A DNA stretch of 64,000 nucleotides from Escherichia phage vB_EcoM_LNA6. This document shows positions 7,232-47,523 of this stretch, piece by piece. The notes beneath the pieces are model-generated. The model had not been told where the DNA came from. It was given only the letters and a program-made list of their open reading frames with translations, and ran no database searches. The stretch is from sequence record OM630585.1, one strand, 5' to 3'. Both the position numbers and the translations under genes were made by a program. Within the stretch, counting starts at the first letter, position 1, and each line of letters opens with the position of its first letter.

Positions 7232-8035
7232 CTGGTCAATACACTCGCAAGGTGTACCAGTTCTCTTATGAACTTCTCCGCATTTCTACGGAGTGTCGGA
7301 CTATATCACGTAGTAGTAATACTACCGTTGCACTTGGGAATGGTCATTAGCTTACCACCCTACTCTACTCAGTTCATACATTAAGTATGCTTTTCGATAG
7401 TCTCTGAACGTTTCTCTGTTAGGAACTCTAAAATACTATTGTTTACTAAGGTATGCAATTGCTCTCTGCATATTATCAACGCTATCTGCAAGCAACCCCA
7501 AAGCCCTATTGCAATTGTGGCACAACATACCTCTTACTTTTCCGGTTTTGTGGTCATGGTCAACGACAAGTTTAGCCTTATGCCGTGAACTATTCATGAT
7601 AAAACCTTCACCGCCACAAATTTGACATTTGTAATCACAGTTACGGAGTAAGGTTTCAACCTCTTCTCTTTCTAAACCATATGTTCTCAGGTAGTAATTC
7701 TTAACTCTACCTTTCTCTCCGCAATGCGAAGAACAATAAACTTGCCTTGCTGTTCTAGGCATGAACACCTTCTCACAGCTAGGACATTTCTTAGTAAGAA
7801 CCCTATGTTCTGCTCTTCTGTCAAATTTTAATACGCAACTTCTGCACCGTTTTTGATTGTATTGGTATGGTTTAAACTCTGCACCACACTCAGTACACAA
7901 TCTCTCTTTGTAACCTGCCATTGTCTCTCCCCTTTGCTTTAGGAGTCCTAACAGAGACTTCGCTGCTGATTACCATATCTTTACAGACTTAGGCTTCCAG
8001 CAATTCACAACGTTTTACATGCGCCACTGACGCAT
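7232..8035 (-). other. putative group I intron in DNA polymerase gene (boundaries inferred)
   Basis: Polymerase reading frame is broken inside motif B; one junction obeying exon-U / intron-terminal-G rules gives ...KNGIY|VLFGAGDEK; contains HNH ORF. Confidence 0.45.
7436..7921 (-). CDS. HNH endonuclease (intron-encoded)
   Basis: 161 aa; multiple CxxC pairs plus DHDHKTG...HNCN HNH motif; lies between polymerase fragments. Confidence 0.75.
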   Translation of the reverse strand: MAGYKERLCTECGAEFKPYQYNQKRCRSCVLKFDRRAEHRVLTKKCPSCEKVFMPRTARQVYCSSHCGEKGRVKNYYLRTYGLEREEVETLLRNCDYKCQICGGEGFIMNSSRHKAKLVVDHDHKTGKVRGMLCHNCNRALGLLADSVDNMQRAIAYLSKQ

Positions 8036-10172
8036 AAATGCCATTCTTGGCTTTCTTACGACCCTTACTAATTTCTTGAAGAAGGTTTGTATCCTGAGTA
8101 GCTCGACAAGTCAAGATATCTTCCTCTTTATTAAGGCTGAAGTAGATGCTATTTAAAGTATGCGCATCAGTTCCTGAGTACACCACGTACAAGTCATTTT
8201 CAGAATCATAATGCAAATACTTGTCAATCTCTGGGTTTAGATACTGGTCAAAATGTTTGCAATAGTATCTGCCATCCTCTTGTTTGACAAACTCAACTTC
8301 TTCTTTACCCTCTGTCACTGCTTTGGTGAACTCTTTATCACCCATAAAGTTACACAGCAGTACAAGTTGCGCGCTATTCATATCTGCTGAAACAATATTA
8401 GTTCCTTCTTCACAAGTCCACACCTCCCTCATAGGTGCTCCATAGACAGCAGCACCAGACGGTACGTTTACAATACCATATTGTGTCATACGTCCAGTTG
8501 AAGTGCCAAACACCATTGCACCAGCACTAAGGCGACCATCAGGACGAATCTGGTTCAACCAACCTTTTTCATCATCCTTTGAGTTCTCAATAGTTCTGCG
8601 TCGGTGCATCAAAGTATAGTACTTAGCAATCTTCTGTCCAAGCTCACCTTCAATCGTATCATAAGATGATTCAGTAAGTTTTGGTGAAGTACGGATTAAG
8701 CAAGGTTCAAGCAAATCTGTGTATTTCTTCACAGACCAGTTATGCTCAATATACTGTACACCTTCGTGCTCAACATAGCTCAAACCACACCGCTCAACCA
8801 TTTCCTGCCACTTAGGATGTTTTGTAATCATCTTTTTATTGTCTTTGAAACGACAAACTTTGACAGGGCGACCATCTGAGTCTTTCTTGTAGTTCCAGTC
8901 ATCTGGAATCCAACCAACTGATTTCAAGTAGTCTTTAACAACTGCTACCTGAGTCATACGAGAAACTTCAAACTCAATTGGTGTATACGGTGCATCAATC
9001 AAACCTGTGTAGCGACTTGACTCAAGTTCAAAGTGGTTAACAACGTGACTGTTATAGTACTTCACAGTTTTGACTGTTTTTACTGGCTTCCAGTCTTTGC
9101 ATTTCTTACCAATCTTTGCATTCAACTCATTGCAAATTTCACGAGCATCCTTCATTGCTACAAAACCCTCCTTGTACTCTTCACCAGTTACAGAGTTGGT
9201 TGGTGTATAGCAATTTCTCTTTTCAATGTTAAAAATCTTTGTAGTTGGCTTACCAAATGGCTTGATTTCATATGTCTGCATCTCACCATTACGTACCTGC
9301 TGACGATACTTTGTCTTAGGGTACTTGGTAATCCTCTTCAGTCCATCTGCATGACCAAATGTTTCAACATACTCATTCCAAGCCCTTGCAAACTCTTCTC
9401 CAGTGACTTTACCTTTGGTCTTAATAGTTGGAGGAAGATGTGGTTCAACCTCTGAAGCAAGCTCATTAGTCAACTTGTCAAGTTCCTTTACATGGAACTC
9501 CATAAGCTCTTTATCAGCTTTCCAACCATTGATAGCTTGCTGGCTCATCCAGAAAGATGTCTCTTTAGCTCGCATGTAGGTTTCATAAGTGTCTATGCCA
9601 CACTTCTTAAGCTTGAGATACTCGTTATCAAGTGCCCGTTTAGTTTTGGTGTTAATACGGATATCTTCTACAACACGAGTGAAGATTTCTGCATTCCACA
9701 CACCCCAATGTTCAATCTCTGGTTTACGAACACCGACACGAGCACCCCATGCAGCCAAACCATGAGCACCTTTATAACCCCTTGGAGTTGGTCTATCCAT
9801 CCACTGAACACGAGACTGAATAAGAGAATCCTGAAAGAAATTACTCCACGGCTTACACTTTGGATTATCAAAGTTCCATAAATCAGGTGCAATGTGATTG
9901 AAAACCCACCAGTCATAACCGAGACCGTTATGGATGCAAAGACGTTTTGCCTTTAACGCAAACTCAACACCTTCACGTAAACCACCCTTAATGTACTTGG
10001 TATACTTGTGACCGAGGATAGGCTCATCTGTGAAGACCCATACAGGTGGCTCTTCATCGTCAGATTTATAGTCTGCAAAAGCCATTACGTGAACTTTAGT
10101 GAACTCAAGGAGTAAACCATCAGTCTCTGTATCACCAACCAAATGTAAGTTTTTAAAATCTATGTTTTCCAT
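8036..10172 (-). CDS. DNA polymerase (family A, T7-type), exon 1
   Basis: N-terminal DTETDG 3'-5' exonuclease motif; HGLAAWGARVG and NGLGYD resemble T7 gp5; tail KAKNGIY is first half of motif B; 3' boundary inferred. Confidence 0.7.
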
Positions 10173-10233
10173 TTTTTACTCCCTCTAAAACCATTAACCC
10201 CATACATTACTGCAAAAAATTATAAAAAGCAAG

Positions 10234-10290
10234 TTGACAATGCACTTGACAAGGTGTTAATCTTTGCGAAGTGGGTTTTTACTTAAAAGG
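10234..10290 (+). promoter_or_regulatory. divergent-junction promoter region with tandem TTGACA boxes
   Basis: agTTGACAatgcacTTGACAaggtgtt; same 25-bp motif recurs at 56139. Confidence 0.4.
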
Positions 10291-10430
10291 TTACTTAACA
10301 GTTTAACTATACAGATACTTTAAAACTCTTAAAAGATTATTTAATAGCTTTTAAAAAGCTTTAAAGTATAACGTATAGAATACGTTAAGATAAAAGATTA
10401 AAACTTAATAGTTACTTAAAAGAGGCTTAC

Positions 10431-10853
10431 ATGCAGAAAATGTTTGTTCACCCAGACATAGCTGACTTTGTTAGAGCTTTGCAGAAGTTGGAAGAACTTG
10501 ACATTGCTGCTCAACGGGAATATGCTCACCATCACAGGAGAATGGTTGATATACAACATGAAATAGAGTTGTCTGAAAACTATGAAGATGACTTAAAATG
10601 CTCTGTATTTGAGCATATGAAAGATGTTGCTACAGCGAGACGTAAAGCTAAAGACACAGTTGCTTTACTAGATTCTCTTAAAAAGAGGTTGCAAAGTGGT
10701 ACAGACTTGTGTAATCTAGCATCACTTATTAACGATGTTGAAACTTCTTGGGATAGGCACTATTATCCACGTTCTGAAAAGACACTTGACTTTTCTTCAT
10801 CAGAAAACTTAAAATGTTCTAGAAAGAAACTTAACCAACTGAGAGAGAAATAA
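10431..10853 (+). CDS. hypothetical protein
   Basis: 140 aa, first gene of plus-strand block after divergent promoter region. Confidence 0.4.
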   Translation: MQKMFVHPDIADFVRALQKLEELDIAAQREYAHHHRRMVDIQHEIELSENYEDDLKCSVFEHMKDVATARRKAKDTVALLDSLKKRLQSGTDLCNLASLINDVETSWDRHYYPRSEKTLDFSSSENLKCSRKKLNQLREK

Positions 10854-12669: not shown

Positions 12670-14647
12670 AGGTCGTAAATTGAAAGAGGCTGGTCAGTTT
12701 GTTGGTCATTGTGCATGTCCACGTTGTGGTTCATCAGATGCTGGTTCAATCTATCATCATGACGATGATTCTTATTCGATGACTTGCTTTAGTTGTAAGA
12801 AAGGTTTCCCAGAGTGGGATTTTGATAAAGGACAAATCGTGAGCACTTATTCTACTGGTTCAGACAATAAAAACCGTACTTTCCGTGGAATGGATTTAGA
12901 CGATGTAAAAGAAAACCTAGAAGCAATGGACTTGAAAGACAGGAAGATTCCTGCAAAAGTTCTTGAGCGTTTGGGTATTAAGGTTGACATTGACAGTGAT
13001 GGTGAAATTGACGCACATTTCTACCCAACTTACAAACGTAATGAAGGTGGTAAGCTAGAACATGTTGGCTACCGTGTTCGTCACCGTTACCCAGAAGACC
13101 ATCCAAAAGAGCACCTACGTGGTAAGTTAAAAGACTTCTCAGGTGGTGTTGGAGACATTAAAGGTGAACTGGCAATGTTCGGTTCATGGATTGCTCCAGA
13201 AGGTGGTAACCGCCTATTCATCTGGGAAGGTGAGATGGAATGTGCGACAGCAATCTATATGACTTCTCTTGCGATTAAGGACAAGTCTCGTCGTAAGAAT
13301 TACTGTCACGTATCTGTTCCATCGGGTGCAAATATTAAATCTATCAAAGACAACTATCAGTACATCACATCATTTGATGAGATTTACTTGTGCTTTGATA
13401 ATGATGAAGCAGGTGCTAAAGCTACCAAAGAGGCTGCTGGTATCCTTCCGATTGAGAAGGTTCGTTTATTCCAGTATCCAGAAGGTGTAAAAGACCTTAA
13501 CGAATGGTGGACAAAGTTCTATAAAGAGAAAGATACGGTTCTGGAAGGATTTAAGCAGCGTATCTACAATGCGCCTCGTTACTGTCCTGCTGGTATCAAG
13601 AACTTCGCAGATGGTTTTGAGGCAATGAAGAATCGTGGTCAGATTCCATTGATTCCTTTCCCAGAATCTTTCGGAGATTTGAACAGGCTGACTTATGGTG
13701 GTTACGGTTTAGGTGAGATTACAACTCTGGCAGCACCATCTTCAGTGGGTAAATCTGCATACACTCGTGAAATGATTTATACTGCTTGGAAAGATACCGA
13801 TTACAATATTGGTGTAATTCCTGTAGAAGATACCTATGAAGAGTTGATGGAGATGCTCTGTGCAATCCACCTGAGCAAGCAGATTTCTGAGATTCCTTAT
13901 GACGAACGTGATTGGGATGAATTGAAGGAAGCACACGCAGAACTATCTAAAGGTCGTCGTATCCACATCGTTGACCATCAAGGGGCAATTGACCAAGATA
14001 ACTTGCTGGAATTTGTTGACTATCTTGTTAACAGTTTAGACTGTAAGATTATTATTCTTGACCCTATTACGTTGGCTCTGTCACGTTCAGATACGGATGA
14101 AGAGGAAGTTTTGTCTGAGCTATTGCGTCGTTGCAAACGCTACCAGTATGCACAGGTGAACGTCTGTCACGTTCGTAAGAGTGCAGGTGGTCAGAAGGCT
14201 AACTCTGAAGGTGGGGATATCTCTGAAGAGGATATTAAAGGTTCTGGTGCGTATTTCCAGATTTCTATGAACAACATTCTGTTAATGCGTAACAAGGTTG
14301 ACCCAGACCCTGTTAAGAAAAACTTGACAAAAATCAAGCTAACTAAATGTCGTCGTCACGGTAAGTCAACGGGTATTGCTGGTCATACTTGGTACAATCC
14401 AGATACAGGACGTCTTATTAAAGCATCTGGTTGTGGAGTTGACATTGATGGTGCAGCAGAAAACATTCGCCAGCAGTTTGGTATTGGTGAAGCTGAAGAC
14501 CATTATGATGATTCTTTACCGCATTATGAGGATGAAGTGTTTGACCGTGAGACTGGTGAAGTCTATACTGAAGAGCAGCGCCAAAGCTCAACGATTCCAC
14601 CTGTATTAAGTGAGGATGCAGATGACTGCCCATTCGAAACTGAGTGA
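12656..14647 (+). CDS. DNA primase-helicase (T7 gp4-like)
   Basis: 663 aa; N-terminal Cys4 zinc ribbon (CACPRCG...CFSC), central TOPRIM-like region, C-terminal Walker A (SVGKSA) helicase. Confidence 0.8.
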   Translation: MLMSKGRKLKEAGQFVGHCACPRCGSSDAGSIYHHDDDSYSMTCFSCKKGFPEWDFDKGQIVSTYSTGSDNKNRTFRGMDLDDVKENLEAMDLKDRKIPAKVLERLGIKVDIDSDGEIDAHFYPTYKRNEGGKLEHVGYRVRHRYPEDHPKEHLRGKLKDFSGGVGDIKGELAMFGSWIAPEGGNRLFIWEGEMECATAIYMTSLAIKDKSRRKNYCHVSVPSGANIKSIKDNYQYITSFDEIYLCFDNDEAGAKATKEAAGILPIEKVRLFQYPEGVKDLNEWWTKFYKEKDTVLEGFKQRIYNAPRYCPAGIKNFADGFEAMKNRGQIPLIPFPESFGDLNRLTYGGYGLGEITTLAAPSSVGKSAYTREMIYTAWKDTDYNIGVIPVEDTYEELMEMLCAIHLSKQISEIPYDERDWDELKEAHAELSKGRRIHIVDHQGAIDQDNLLEFVDYLVNSLDCKIIILDPITLALSRSDTDEEEVLSELLRRCKRYQYAQVNVCHVRKSAGGQKANSEGGDISEEDIKGSGAYFQISMNNILLMRNKVDPDPVKKNLTKIKLTKCRRHGKSTGIAGHTWYNPDTGRLIKASGCGVDIDGAAENIRQQFGIGEAEDHYDDSLPHYEDEVFDRETGEVYTEEQRQSSTIPPVLSEDADDCPFETE

Positions 14648-14903
14648 TAGTTATAAAAGAGAGGGGTTCACACCCTTCTTTGAAGAAAAAAGTTTAAATA
14701 AATTTCAGGAAGAGTGTTTGACAAAGATTGATAGATTCTATAGAATGCTCCTCATGAAATGCGATGGAGAGGTTGAGATAAAAGAAGATTTTCACCAGAG
14801 CATGATTACAGTCATCATTGCGCTGCCTCAGCATAATATTAGTTGGCTGTTTATAATTAAAGAAAATGTGTTTGAATATCAAGTATATCGGAGAATATCA
14901 TGA
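14610..14903 (+). CDS. hypothetical protein
   Basis: 97 aa ORF overlapping helicase end. Confidence 0.3.
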   Translation: MRMQMTAHSKLSDSYKREGFTPFFEEKSLNKFQEECLTKIDRFYRMLLMKCDGEVEIKEDFHQSMITVIIALPQHNISWLFIIKENVFEYQVYRRIS

Positions 14904-15049
14904 AACACTCTAAAGCATTTGAAAAAGTTTTTGGGGATTCCTTAAAAGCCACTGCTGGAAAACCAGCAAAATACTATGAAGAAAAACGTGTAAGAACTGG
15001 AAAAACTGCACGTAAAGCAGCTTCTAAAGATAAGCACAACTTCCAGTAA
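14900..15049 (+). CDS. small basic protein (hypothetical)
   Basis: 49 aa Lys-rich ORF with GGAGA RBS upstream; below ORF-track length cutoff, read manually. Confidence 0.25.
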   Translation: MKHSKAFEKVFGDSLKATAGKPAKYYEEKRVRTGKTARKAASKDKHNFQ

Positions 15050-15121
15050 TTAGTATTTGACAATAGAGTATCAACAAACTAGAATTGGTACTCTTCATAA
15101 ATTGAGATAGAGGTTTAAATA

Positions 15122-15979
15122 ATGTCTAAAGTTGTTAAAATGAAAGCTCCGGTAGAGAAATACAATGGTACTGAACGCCAAACTCTGCGATACCTGCTGA
15201 AAGATGTCTGGTTTTATTACCTGAACACTTCACCACGTCCGGGAAAAGGTAAGTCTATTGATAAGAAATTCCCAGGCAAAGACTGTAACTACAGCGTATC
15301 AATTCTGGCAGAAGACGGTAACAAACTGTTTAAAGAGTTTACTAAGTCTAAGAAAAATCCAGAAGGCTGGGATAAAGTCACTACTGAAGCAGTTGATGCA
15401 GATGACTTCGAAGAGAAGTTTGGTTGTAAACCACCTTTTGAAGCAGACACTTACTACATCTTGAAAGTAAGTCGTGCAGCAGCTTATAAAGATGGTGCTG
15501 TATGGACAGCTAAACAGTCATTCCCTGTGATGCTGATTGAAGAAGTAAATGGTAAGCGTGTAGCTGTTAAACAGCCGATGAAGAAAATCAAAGCTCAAGC
15601 ATCTGATAAACATGAAGATGACAAGAACTATGATGTAATTCATCCAGATATTGCAGTCGGTAACGGTTCTTTTGGTAGTGTGATTCTTTCTACTCACTTC
15701 TACACTTTTGAGAACAATGTTCTGACAAAACCTATTCAGGAACAGTTTATCATTGATACTCTTGTACCTTACACTGGTGGTAACGGTGCTAACGGTGAAC
15801 CTGAACTGGATGAAGACGAACTGGCTATGCTTGGTCTTGATGGTGTCGAAGATAACGGTGAAATCACTGAAGAAGATGCAACAGACCATAAATCTTCGAA
15901 TGAGTCTGATGATGGTGATGATGAAGATTTGCCAGACCCAGATGACGAAGAAGATGAAGACTTCGATACAGAAGACTAA
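15122..15979 (+). CDS. single-stranded DNA-binding protein (gp2.5-like)
   Basis: 285 aa with very acidic C-terminal tail ending DEDFDTED, as in T7-type SSBs. Confidence 0.5.
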   Translation: MSKVVKMKAPVEKYNGTERQTLRYLLKDVWFYYLNTSPRPGKGKSIDKKFPGKDCNYSVSILAEDGNKLFKEFTKSKKNPEGWDKVTTEAVDADDFEEKFGCKPPFEADTYYILKVSRAAAYKDGAVWTAKQSFPVMLIEEVNGKRVAVKQPMKKIKAQASDKHEDDKNYDVIHPDIAVGNGSFGSVILSTHFYTFENNVLTKPIQEQFIIDTLVPYTGGNGANGEPELDEDELAMLGLDGVEDNGEITEEDATDHKSSNESDDGDDEDLPDPDDEEDEDFDTED

Positions 15980-26739: not shown

Positions 26740-26750
26740 AACTTGACAAG

Positions 26751-27137
26751 GTGATGTGGGTCTTGATAGGCTTACATCACCTTTTTATTTGGAGTTACAT
26801 TATGGACTTGTGGCTTTATGTAGCAGCTTGTGGGATTGTATGTCTGATAATCTTATTTATTCTTGGAATAATGCGATTTAGAGACATAATACAGTCAGAT
26901 TTTTTGCCTGAGTTTGCCATGATAGTTGGGGTTATTGCCCTTTGTGTCTTGGCAGTGTTCTATTCATACAAAACTGTGATATGGATGGAGGCAAACAATT
27001 GTGTAAAAACTCATCAGCATCGTGAGGTTACTCATTTTGTGAGTGTACTTAGTGGTAGCACCACTATACTTGTCCCACAAACTTCTGTAGAGTATCTTTA
27101 CACATGTGATAATGGTAAAACTATATGGTGGAATTAA
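26751..27137 (+). CDS. membrane protein (hypothetical)
   Basis: 128 aa with hydrophobic segments. Confidence 0.35.
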   Translation: MMWVLIGLHHLFIWSYIMDLWLYVAACGIVCLIILFILGIMRFRDIIQSDFLPEFAMIVGVIALCVLAVFYSYKTVIWMEANNCVKTHQHREVTHFVSVLSGSTTILVPQTSVEYLYTCDNGKTIWWN

Positions 27138-36337: not shown

Positions 36338-36416
36338 AGTGTTTGACAAGGGGCTTCGAAGCCCCTTAGAATAGCCTTACAAAATGATTTATTAACTAAC
36401 AAGAGAGAGTAATAAG

Positions 36417-43923: not shown

Positions 43924-44249
43924 TGATTGGTATCACTGCAACCATTGCCATTTTCGCGCTATATAAGGCATATAAAGCCTATAATCTAGCAAATAAGGCA
44001 ATCACACAACAGGTTAGCAATAACCTTGTAGGGAGCTTTCTAGAGCGTTTAAATGATGAGCAAATAAAGCGGCTAGAGATGAGCTTCAGATACAAAGCGA
44101 AAACCTATCAGATAAGTGACATCTTCAAAGATGATTTTCAGTTAGTTGATGATTATAATTCTCTGATAAATGCTTTAAATATCAGTGACTTAAAAGACTA
44201 CTACGCTGTAATTGTTCAAGAATTGAGCAAACGAAAACAAAGTGTTTGA
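43917..44249 (+). CDS. early-array protein 5 (membrane, hypothetical)
   Basis: 110 aa, N-terminal hydrophobic helix; start overlaps previous stop. Confidence 0.4.
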   Translation: MLMIGITATIAIFALYKAYKAYNLANKAITQQVSNNLVGSFLERLNDEQIKRLEMSFRYKAKTYQISDIFKDDFQLVDDYNSLINALNISDLKDYYAVIVQELSKRKQSV

Positions 44250-44274
44250 CACTGGTTTTTAGATAGATTAAATT
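44246..44274 (+). promoter_or_regulatory. sigma70-like promoter inside module
   Basis: TTGACA, 17-bp spacer, TAAATT. Confidence 0.5.
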
Positions 44275-44340
44275 ACACATCAACGGGGAGGGAATGACCT
44301 TCCCCACTAAATAAAGTCCTTAAACTAGGAGATTCAAAAA
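44250..44340 (+). repeat. early-array intergenic module, promoter type
   Basis: TTGACActggtttttagatagatTAAATT + atcaacggggagggaatgaccttcccc hairpin + conserved leader. Confidence 0.6.
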
Positions 44341-45103: not shown

Positions 45104-45204
45104 AAAATTTTGTTGACACTGGTTTTTAGATAGATTAAATTACACATCAACGGGGAGGGAATGACCTTCCCCACTAAATAAAATCCTAAACTGGAGATTC
45201 TAAA
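45104..45204 (+). repeat. early-array intergenic module, promoter type
   Basis: Near-identical to 44250 module including TTGACA-N17-TAAATT. Confidence 0.6.
45113..45141 (+). promoter_or_regulatory. sigma70-like promoter inside module
   Basis: TTGACA, 17-bp spacer, TAAATT; identical to 44246 copy. Confidence 0.5.
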
Positions 45205-46772: not shown

Positions 46773-46904
46773 TCAATAACTTACAAAAAACTTTTAAAAA
46801 AGTGTTGACAATACCCCTTGACATTGGTAACTTTGTTCGAGGGGGTTTATCTAAAAGGGATTAACTTAAAAGATTCTTTATAGATAAGCTTAAAAAATTG
46901 CTTG

Positions 46905-46992
46905 CAATCAGCTATCAAAACAAGTAAATTACTAATCAACGGGAGGTAATAGCCTCCCCACTAAACAAAGTCCTTAAACTAGGAGAGTCAAA
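46905..46992 (+). repeat. early-array intergenic module, promoter-type variant
   Basis: gtaaattactaatcaacgggaggtaatagcctcccc + conserved leader; compensatory changes keep the hairpin. Confidence 0.5.
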
Positions 46993-47523
46993 ATGAACAA
47001 GTTTAAAGCTATCAACTTCATTCGTTCAAATGCTGTAATGTCAAAACCTGTAAAAGACACATACGAATTTCGCTGCAATGGGGTACACTTTGCAACCATC
47101 ACTAAGTCAGAAAACGGGGCTTATTACATTCATCGCCGTAATGTTTCTACTGTTGTAGTCTCTCACTTTATGCAAGCTGTAGCGGAATTATTGCCGTTAT
47201 TCTTAGAGATTTATCTAGATGAGTGTAAAAACGTTCACAACCACGTTAAAAACCTTTTAAACGGTTATAAAATGGCTTATGAACGTTCTATCAAGTCGCT
47301 AAACAAGTTCTATAAAGCCCCTGAAAATACTGTATCAATAGCTTATGATGTAAGCGGTGAAATGGTCAACCTCTCCAATGTAGAACAAATTGGCCTTTAT
47401 GACTCACGTCCTAGCGGTTACTCTAAGACACTGGGAGAAGGTTTATCTTTCAATATCAAGAACTTAGAAAAAACTTTAAAAGATATTGAAAAAGATATTG
47501 ACGAAACAATCAAAAGTCTGTAA
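46993..47523 (+). CDS. early-array protein 12 (hypothetical)
   Basis: 176 aa after module variant. Confidence 0.45.
   Translation: MNKFKAINFIRSNAVMSKPVKDTYEFRCNGVHFATITKSENGAYYIHRRNVSTVVVSHFMQAVAELLPLFLEIYLDECKNVHNHVKNLLNGYKMAYERSIKSLNKFYKAPENTVSIAYDVSGEMVNLSNVEQIGLYDSRPSGYSKTLGEGLSFNIKNLEKTLKDIEKDIDETIKSL

Follow-up and report, generated by a model that had tools for sequence, protein, structure and literature searches.

A conserved second TTGACA hexamer in the spacer of three predicted sigma-70-type promoters of a Felix O1-like phage

Introduction

Why should the same pair of TTGACA hexamers recur where a phage genome turns from minus-strand to plus-strand genes? The question is raised by a stretch of 64,000 nucleotides from Escherichia phage vB_EcoM_LNA6 (OM630585.1), referred to here as the window, which belongs to the Felixounavirus group (Felix O1/wV8-like) and shares 97-99.5% identity with the genomes of allfine, momo, wV8 and Felix O1. 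Phages of the Felix O1 type are long-established tools for typing, and today they are candidates for biocontrol and therapy. A preliminary description of the window noticed a TTGACA motif repeated at both minus-to-plus junctions and proposed a shared regulatory site, for example one bound by a regulator at divergent promoters. The genes and intergenic regions concerned are the following:

7989-10172, minus strand: DNA polymerase gene
10173-10430: site 1 intergenic region, minus-to-plus, flanked by the DNA polymerase gene on the left and the gene 97 homologue on the right
10431-10853, plus strand: Felix O1 gene 97 homologue
46993-47523, plus strand: open reading frame downstream of site 3, in the early region
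Start at 56039, minus strand: Felix O1 gene 40 homologue, a small gene
56040-56288: site 2 intergenic region, minus-to-plus, flanked by the gene 40 homologue on the left and the gene 41 homologue on the right
Start at 56289, plus strand: Felix O1 gene 41 homologue, a DUF5681 protein

The Felix O1 equivalents of sites 1 and 2 are the gene 96/97 and gene 40/41 junctions, respectively. According to Whichard et al. (2010), Felix O1 has four transcription units, and transcription diverges at both of these junctions (PMC3185647). One promoter predicted in that genome, P41, reads TTGACA-N15-TATAGG and begins at the first hexamer of site 2; P41 aside, no homologous promoter was seen in the 40-41 and 96-97 regions, the timing of transcription through host RNA polymerase alone was left unexplained, and no RNA polymerase-modifying proteins were reported (PMC3185647). 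In GenBank record MZ726792 (phage ASO1B), a rightward promoter is annotated that begins at the first hexamer of site 1, with GTTAAT as its -10 element at N16. Neither the literature nor GenBank promoter annotation yielded a description of the doubled hexamer, a literature search on Felixounavirus found no transcription start-site or RNA-seq study, and the portion of the Bas63 PhageMaP preprint that was searched held no result for these intergenic sites. In the RT-PCR classes of Felix O1, genes 41, 42 and 96-99 reach their maximum at 25 min; these data look noisy, and the time classes were given little weight because many structural genes are put at 5 min.

Occurrence of the double hexamer

Three exact double sites are present in the window, two of them at the junctions:

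10234-10257, plus strand: site 1, TTGACAATGCACTTGACAAGGTGT, of the form TTGACA-N6-TTGACA-AGGTGT
56139-56162, plus strand: site 2, TTGACAAAGTACTTGACAAGGTGT, of the form TTGACA-N6-TTGACA-AGGTGT
46805-46823, plus strand: site 3, TTGACAATACCCCTTGACA, a third exact double site, within a same-strand block

The repeat reported at the two minus-to-plus junctions was thus borne out, both copies lying on the plus strand and being identical at 20 of 24 positions. It is not restricted to strand switches, since the third copy (46805-46823) lies in a block of genes on the same strand. A chance origin can be set aside. When the window was simulated with a first-order Markov model (n=300) and searched for exact TTGACA-N4-7-TTGACA, the mean was 0.14 sites and none of the 300 simulations reached the three observed. 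TTGACA itself is abundant (58 copies on the plus and 37 on the minus strand, compared to about 21 expected per strand); even with this real excess allowed for, the Poisson expectation was 0.28 sites (P(>=3) = 0.003).

The complete genome of wV8 carries exactly three double sites, all on the plus strand. Hafnia phage Zyzzx, with approximately 60% polymerase identity, carries exactly two, both on the plus strand and both at the minus-to-plus junctions. In Erwinia phage M7 a single intergenic double site lies towards the end of the plus-strand block, and ordinary single-hexamer promoters stand at the junctions. Among the matches listed in an IMG/VR scan for TTGACA-N4-7-TTGACAAGG, unrelated contigs appeared at about the estimated chance rate.

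Conservation of the second hexamer

Orthologous regions were collected from IMG/VR phage contigs, including diverged lineages whose flanking-gene proteins are 84-92% identical, and 21, 19 and 17 distinct sequences were aligned for sites 1, 2 and 3, respectively. Throughout some 60 related genomes both hexamers never changed, and the bases between them varied freely: over the three sites, 0 of 36 hexamer positions varied, compared to 14 of 19 between-hexamer positions (Fisher p = 2.7e-9). The gap variants at site 2, all of 6 nt, comprise AAGTAC, AAGGAC, AAGCAC, AATGAC, TTCCTC and AGCCTC. A less biased scan of site 1, in which IMG/VR and a metagenome collection were searched with the flanks fixed and the 12 middle positions left free, returned 43 matches with 11 distinct middles; all six gap positions varied (ATGCAC, ATGTAC, AAGCAC, ATTCAC, AATCAC, ATGCGC, AATAAC, ATACAC, TGGGAC, AACTGC, ATTCAA), and the second hexamer was TTGACA in 43/43.

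This pattern demonstrates independent purifying selection on the second TTGACA within the spacer of three predicted promoters per genome. The earlier suggestion that conservation exceeds what a single -35 box needs is therefore upheld, as neither hexamer changes from genus to genus and 14 of the 19 intervening positions do, and invariant hexamers amid a variable gap likewise support a shared regulatory module that is selectively maintained at both junctions.

The bases flanking the second hexamer are usually C on the 5' side and A or T on the 3' side. The extended sigma-70 -35 consensus is tcTTGACat, with which these flanks agree. The tendency extends more widely in this genome: a spacer hexamer with at most one mismatch to TTGACA was found in 7 of the 27 TTGACA-N16-18-TAnnnT sites of the window, compared to 1.9 expected (P = 0.0025).

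Position of the hexamers relative to the -10 element

Which of the two hexamers would serve as the -35 can be judged from their distance to a conserved TAnnnT. From the first hexamer this distance is composed as follows (inter-hexamer gap + second hexamer + remainder):

Site 1: 6+6+6, total 18 nt
Site 2: 6+6+5, total 17 nt
Site 3: 7+6+4, total 17 nt
Zyzzx, polymerase junction: 4+6+7, total 17 nt
Zyzzx, DUF5681 junction: 5+6+6, total 17 nt
M7: 6+6+5, total 17 nt

The distance is 17-18 nt in every site and lineage, so that the second hexamer shifts inside a fixed frame. The T, A and final T of the -10 hexamer are kept in all observed variants (TAATCT/TAGTCT at site 1, TAGGCT/TAGCCT/TAAGTT at site 2, TAACTT/TAATGT at site 3), which match the consensus at only 3/6 positions (T-12, A-11, T-7); a simple consensus scan called neither of the plus-strand junction promoters. 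At 16-18 nt past the second hexamer there is no conserved TAnnnT, the corresponding bases being AAGTGG (site 1), TACTTA/CACTTA (site 2), GGGGGT (site 3) and ACATGG (Zyzzx). From the fixed distance to the first hexamer, together with the lack of a -10 element after the second, it was concluded that the first hexamer is the putative -35 of a sigma-70-type promoter and the second an extra element at about -25 to -17.

The features expected of a sigma-70 promoter recur at all three sites. The -35 matches TTGACA at 6/6 positions at 10234, 56139 and 46805 and is invariant in the relatives; the -10 candidates TAATCT (N18), TAGGCT (N17) and TAACTT (N17) each have A2 and T6; and all three lie on the coding strand upstream of the open reading frames at 10431, 56289 and 46993, after aaaa..aaaaag tracts.

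Anatomy of the three predicted promoters

The three sites have a common layout, in which an A-rich UP-like tract is followed by TTGACA, a gap of 6-7 nt, the second TTGACA, 4-6 nt usually ending in TG, a minimal -10 and an AT-rich leader; the leaders between predicted promoter and start codon are 125-160 nt long. At site 1 the elements are:

10214-10233, plus strand: UP-like A/T-rich tract aaaaaattataaaaagcaag, read from the sequence and adjoining the first hexamer
10234-10239, plus strand: first TTGACA, the proposed -35, invariant and 18 nt upstream of TAATCT/TAGTCT in every lineage
10240-10245, plus strand: inter-hexamer gap of 6 nt, all positions variable
10246-10251, plus strand: second TTGACA, in the spacer at about -24 to -19, kept in all of the sequences scanned
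10255-10263, plus strand: TGt + TAATCT, an extended -10-like TG with a minimal -10 (hexamer 10258-10263), TAnnnT in all lineages
10204-10232, minus strand: leftward DNA polymerase promoter, TTGCTT (10232-10227)-N17-TAATGT (10209-10204)

We infer a transcription start near 10269-10271. The last 10 nt of the UP-like tract (aaaaagcaag) are kept across genera. An aaaa..ttttaaaaaagNNg tract also stands upstream of some ten further promoter-like TTGACA sites of the window, whose -10 hexamers are better (TATACT, TATAGT, TAGAAT, TAATAT, TAAATT). At site 2 the corresponding features are:

56129-56138, plus strand: UP-like A-tract aaaaaagttg (gttaaaaaagttg), from sequence and alignment
56139-56144, plus strand: first TTGACA, the proposed -35, invariant and identical to the -35 of the predicted P41
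56151-56156, plus strand: second TTGACA, in the spacer, invariant
56160-56167, plus strand: TG + TAGGCT, a minimal -10 (hexamer 56162-56167), N17 from the first hexamer
56085-56113, minus strand: leftward promoter TTGACT-N17-TACCAT for the gene starting at 56039, from a consensus scan and lying in an invariant block

Transcription is predicted to start near 56173-56175. The TG abuts the -10 here, without the one-base offset, and Felix O1 has TA in its place. Site 3 has a same-strand gene upstream and comprises:

46783-46804, plus strand: full UP-like element acaaaaaacttttaaaaaagtg, from the sequence and conserved in the alignment
46805-46833, plus strand: TTGACA-atacccc-TTGACA-ttgg-TAACTT (TAACTT at 46828-46833)
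46840-46992, plus strand: leader, beginning AGGGGGTTTATCTAAAAGGGATTAACTTAAAAGATTC, upstream of the open reading frame at 46993-47523

Both of its hexamers are invariant and the 7-nt gap between them is variable; TGg precedes the -10, which lies at N17 and reads either TAACTT or TAATGT. The first bases predicted to be transcribed from site 3 resemble those at site 1 (GTGGGTTTTTACTTAAAAGG).

These maps lend no support to the proposed tie to divergent promoters. Site 3 has the same architecture without a leftward gene, and the double site of Erwinia phage M7 lies away from the junctions. The distance to the leftward promoter also differs between the two junctions: at site 1 the leftward and rightward promoters stand back-to-back with their -35 hexamers 1 bp apart, whereas at site 2 the leftward promoter is 25 bp from the motif. 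The site 1 leftward promoter has the form TTGCTT-N17-TA(A/G)(T/G)GT in six diverged lineages with different spacer sequence; the leftward promoter annotated in MZ726792 is another one, located in the leader and reading TTAAGA-N15-TATAGT.

Several other readings of these bases were tried and rejected. A minus-strand PhoB-box or activator-dependent leftward promoter, composed of TGTCAA repeats and a perfect TATAAT (10218-10213), was discarded as the TATAAT is absent in other lineages, and a CACTT/AAGTG hairpin around the site 1 -10 showed no compensatory change in lineage L025. Inspection against consensus sequences gave mismatches or non-conserved bases for sigma-32, sigma-E, sigma-28 and sigma-54 promoters, as well as for a marbox, IHF and DnaA-box sites and a Type I restriction site.

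Leader sequences

The similarity between sites 1 and 2 does not end at the promoter. A shared leader box, ACTTAAAAGGTT, is found at 10281-10292 (site 1) and 56187-56198 (site 2), exactly 25 nt past AGGTGT and about 13-15 nt downstream of the predicted start, and a looser similarity runs on from it to ACAGATA; judging by this alignment, the module common to the two sites is longer than the 25 bp first described. The following leader features were recorded:

10270-10430, plus strand: site 1 leader, conserved and AT-rich, about 160 nt, from the alignment of 21 distinct sequences
10282, 10294, 10307, 10328, 10359, 10415: CTTAAAAG-type boxes in the site 1 leader
10348-10362: palindrome AGCTTTTAAAAAGCT in the site 1 leader
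10371-10385: hairpin ACGTATagaATACGT in the site 1 leader
56168-56288, plus strand: site 2 leader, nearly invariant, from the alignment of 19 distinct sequences and the three-site alignment; it contains ACTTAAAAGGTT (56187-56198) and CTCTAAAAAGG
56221-56240: hairpin AGATATCtttctgGATATCT in the site 2 leader
56250-56266: palindrome CTTAAAAGCCTTTTAAG in the site 2 leader

In both leaders conservation is higher than at the beginnings of the adjacent genes. The hairpin ACGTATagaATACGT shows a compensatory change in lineage L019 (ATGTATaacATACAT), and an Rfam search with the two leaders gave noise only. Either folded RNA or operators bound by a dimeric protein could account for the hairpins and palindromes. 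In Felixounavirus the leader box reads CTTAAAAGGTT(A/C)C at both junctions, whereas in the diverged lineages and Zyzzx it reads CTTAA(A/T)AGACTC, again at both; set against each other, the two forms are CTTAAAAGGTT and CTTAAAAGACTC, and the first box differs as GGTT(A/C)C in Felixounavirus against GACTC in the others. This concerted difference at both junctions suggests gene conversion or a common trans-acting reader. Weak nAnnnT-type boxes (AAGGTT, AAGACT, TAGACT) lie 13-25 nt past the predicted start in several lineages.

Boxes of the type CT[TAG][TA]A[AC]AG number 91 and 64 on the two strands of the window, where base composition would predict about 18 on each. They are arrayed in the two junction leaders (10282-10422, 56188-56266) and are densest at 47,900-49,560. 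This last region is an ORF-free 1.7 kb at a plus-to-minus convergent junction, with short arrays of 10-12 bp period (CTTAACAATTT x2.8, ACTTGTTAGCA x2.7, CCTATAAAGC x2.9, CTGTTAAGAA x6.8, TTGTTAGAAGGC x5.9). Boxes of the CTTAAAAG/CTTAACAG type, some 30 of them, lie there in either orientation. The region has an iteron-like appearance and might be a replication origin, a packaging site or a regulator array; its wV8 counterpart, at 13,884-15,531, is unannotated.

Comparison with known systems

Strong sigma-70 early promoters of virulent coliphages (T4 early, T5 and T7 A1-A3 type) resemble those described here in their consensus TTGACA, A-rich upstream tract, 17-18-nt spacer and TG before the -10, as well as in the predicted use of unmodified host RNA polymerase and a place at the head of transcription units. 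They differ in that here the -10 is minimal (3/6), a second TTGACA sits in the spacer and a conserved leader of 125-160 nt follows. No promoter of T4, T5 or T7 is known to us whose spacer contains another consensus -35. A T4 middle promoter was rejected, as there is no MotA box (TGCTTtA at -30) on the plus strand and a consensus -35 is present.

The predicted P41 of Felix O1 and the promoter annotated in MZ726792 concern the same loci and use the same -35, namely the first hexamers of site 2 and site 1, respectively. Their -10 choices, TATAGG at N15 and GTTAAT at N16, are not conserved across lineages, and neither prediction mentions the second hexamer or the third copy. The ordinary host-type phage promoter class is thus already known, and two of the three promoters had been predicted before; what appears to be new is the conserved second -35 embedded in the spacer, the third copy, the cross-genus geometry and the shared leader box.

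The lambda CII and P22 C1 sites (TTGC-N6-TTGC) are likewise short direct repeats that start with TTG and overlap the -35 region. In those sites, however, the repeats flank a poor -35 with a fixed 10-bp period and a temperate-phage activator is needed, whereas in the present promoters the repeated unit is itself the consensus -35, the copies recur at 10-13 bp, and the downstream one falls within the spacer. An activator site of this type was rejected because the TTGACA unit, the 10-13-bp period and the consensus -35 do not fit. Boxes of the OmpR/PhoB type, in which fixed 10-11-bp repeats replace the -35 about 10 bp from a -10, were rejected for either strand: sites 1 and 2 have a 12-bp period, other sites have different ones, and the minus-strand TATAAT that had prompted the idea is not conserved.

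The lambdoid PR' promoter likewise stands before a long operon with terminators in it and has a further -35-like hexamer, used during Q loading, past the true -35. In lambda PR' this hexamer adjoins a -10-like element that induces pausing soon after the transcription start, and a Q-binding element accompanies it; here, in contrast, the extra hexamer lies upstream of the -10. A further parallel, competition of extra sigma-70-like sites overlapping a promoter with the productive register, was described by Lagator et al. (2022), although in random and mutant libraries, with unproductive sites defined by loss of the ribosome-binding site, and not for a natural -35 embedded in a spacer (PMC8791639).

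Possible roles of the second hexamer

The motif would, with somewhat better than even confidence, be the core of a small class of host sigma-70-type promoters in this virulent phage, three per genome, in which the second TTGACA provides an extra docking register for sigma region 4. Two of these promoters would start the long rightward units, one from gene 97 onward and the other comprising gene 41, the tRNAs and the structural genes, and the third (46805) would serve an early-region gene. The first TTGACA, placed after the A-rich UP-like tract, would act as the -35, with the minimal, usually TG-preceded -10 found 17-18 nt downstream, and transcription would begin about 7 nt past the -10, into the long conserved AT-rich leader. 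The second TTGACA, which lacks a -10 partner and sits at about -25 to -17, would be bound by region 4 of the host sigma-70, an assignment based on its match to the consensus including the usual C and A/T flanks. Such a register would be non-productive and might tune the capture or retention of RNA polymerase at promoters that combine a perfect -35 with a minimal -10; a factor of the same specificity could equally be the reader, with the same effect. That competing or overlapping sigma-70 RNA polymerase registers alter promoter output is documented by Lagator et al. (2022; PMC8791639). On the other hand, a non-productive docking site should lower expression, and its conservation would then be puzzling. 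The 3/6 match of the -10 hexamers, the failure of the simple consensus scan to call the two junction promoters and the placement of the TG at site 2 also speak against this reading, and the 25-min maximum in the noisy RT-PCR data would fit a regulated class.

What else could keep a hexamer intact in the spacer? The role of the second hexamer, which we infer from conservation and geometry, is most likely that of a competing docking site for sigma region 4 or of an operator. The latter reading, in which the pair of hexamers or the second one alone is bound by a dedicated phage or host regulator that switches the heads of the rightward operons, is possible but rather unlikely. A perfectly conserved element in a promoter spacer occupies a classic repressor position, the weak -10 and long conserved leaders at all three promoters suggest a regulated class, the phage encodes at least one HTH regulator, and the 25-min peak of the Felix O1 genes in the noisy RT-PCR would fit, as would the unexplained transcription timing (PMC3185647). 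The spacing of 4, 5, 6 or 7 nt between hexamers across sites and lineages is hard to reconcile with one rigid dimer; the shifting position thus disfavours a rigid dimer bound to the two hexamers together, although a factor that reads the second hexamer alone would still fit. Moreover, the element is the sigma-70 -35 consensus, flanks included, no candidate reader was found, and the only recognisable regulator is Xre-type (PezA/HigA/HipB/C.AhdI-like), a family that usually binds palindromes and not direct repeats. An undescribed Ounavirinae timing switch, made up of the double-hexamer promoters and the box-filled leaders, with a phage factor or a remodelled sigma region 4 at the spacer TTGACA and a second factor at the CTTAAAAG-type boxes, which also fill the ORF-free 1.7 kb, is a more speculative proposal that we regard as unlikely; if true, it would tie expression of the two main rightward operons to replication or to the programme of infection.

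The remaining explanations have far less to recommend them. A loading or remodelling role for the second hexamer is improbable. It would be Q-like, as with the -35-like element of lambdoid late promoters, or work by sigma appropriation, a phage factor moving sigma region 4 onto the hexamer and modifying the polymerase for the long, terminator-rich operons. The promoters head long units with many intrinsic terminators whose read-through is unexplained (PMC3185647), the leader box 13-25 nt past the predicted start fits nAnnnT as a sigma-dependent pause element would, and from lineage to lineage the two junctions have altered their first leader box together; yet no Q-, N-, MotA- or AsiA-like gene has so far been recognised, Rfam finds nothing in the leaders, and many terminators overlap or precede their own sigma-70-type promoters (26743, 36343, 58176), so that re-initiation may suffice for the long units. 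The geometry is also unlike that of lambda PR'. It is very improbable that each TTGACA is the -35 of its own productive promoter, the two overlapping with starts 10-13 nt apart: two perfect -35 hexamers do stand in tandem and overlapping promoters are common in bacteria, but A2 and T6 are not kept across lineages 16-18 nt past the second TTGACA. Just as little probability attaches to the hexamer being a functionless passenger in three paralogous copies of an ancestral promoter-leader module. The extended similarity among the sites, the unusual conservation of the whole intergenic regions and the many duplicated promoter repeats of this phage would agree with such an origin; against it, the bases adjoining the hexamer vary freely and the hexamer never does, and in Zyzzx and M7 its position is shifted with the sequence intact.

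The three promoters are likely control points, two of them heading the replication/nucleotide-metabolism and the tRNA/structural units, and their doubled architecture is absent from the single-hexamer promoters of the same genome. A natural second -35 in a spacer would offer a clean test case for the tuning of promoter output by overlapping docking of RNA polymerase. The effect could be a modest tuning, and were the second hexamer inert, the finding would amount to ordinary promoter annotation.

Other promoters and neighbouring genes

The Xre-type HTH regulator is encoded at 1724-2053 on the minus strand, downstream in the DNA polymerase transcription unit, and corresponds to wV8 gp91, annotated as a transcriptional regulator. 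Its best matches are to HTH_3, with PezA, HigA, HipB, C.BclI and C.AhdI as relatives in the PDB. As a reader of TTGACA it was rejected, the Sigma70_r4 match of 21.8 bits being below the cutoff and reflecting generic HTH similarity; the leader palindromes are likelier targets for this regulator than the TTGACA repeats.

Promoter-like sequences embedded in terminator-like hairpins were observed at three places:

26743-26800: TTGACA[AGGTGATGT]..[ACATCACCT]TTTTT
36343-36375: TTGACAA[GGGGCTTCGAAGCCCC]TTAGAAT
58166-58205: [GGGTAT]TGACA..TTG[ATACCC]TTTAATAT, which is the Felix O1 terminator t42

Such modules of terminator plus promoter may explain the expression of long units without antitermination. 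A promoter repeat, TTGACACTGGTTTTTAGATAGATTAAATTACACATCAAC..., is present in two copies in the early region (44246-44284 and 45113-45151); these are the 39-bp repeats known from Felix O1 and part of the direct-repeat set DR_1-9 of wV8. The second gene after site 2 (56742-58157) encodes a protein with DUF2828 and DUF7788, labelled "vWFA protein" in some phage records and "RNA-binding protein" in RefSeq. Directly downstream of it, 24 tRNA genes are found at 58323-63552, with strong TTGACA promoters between them.
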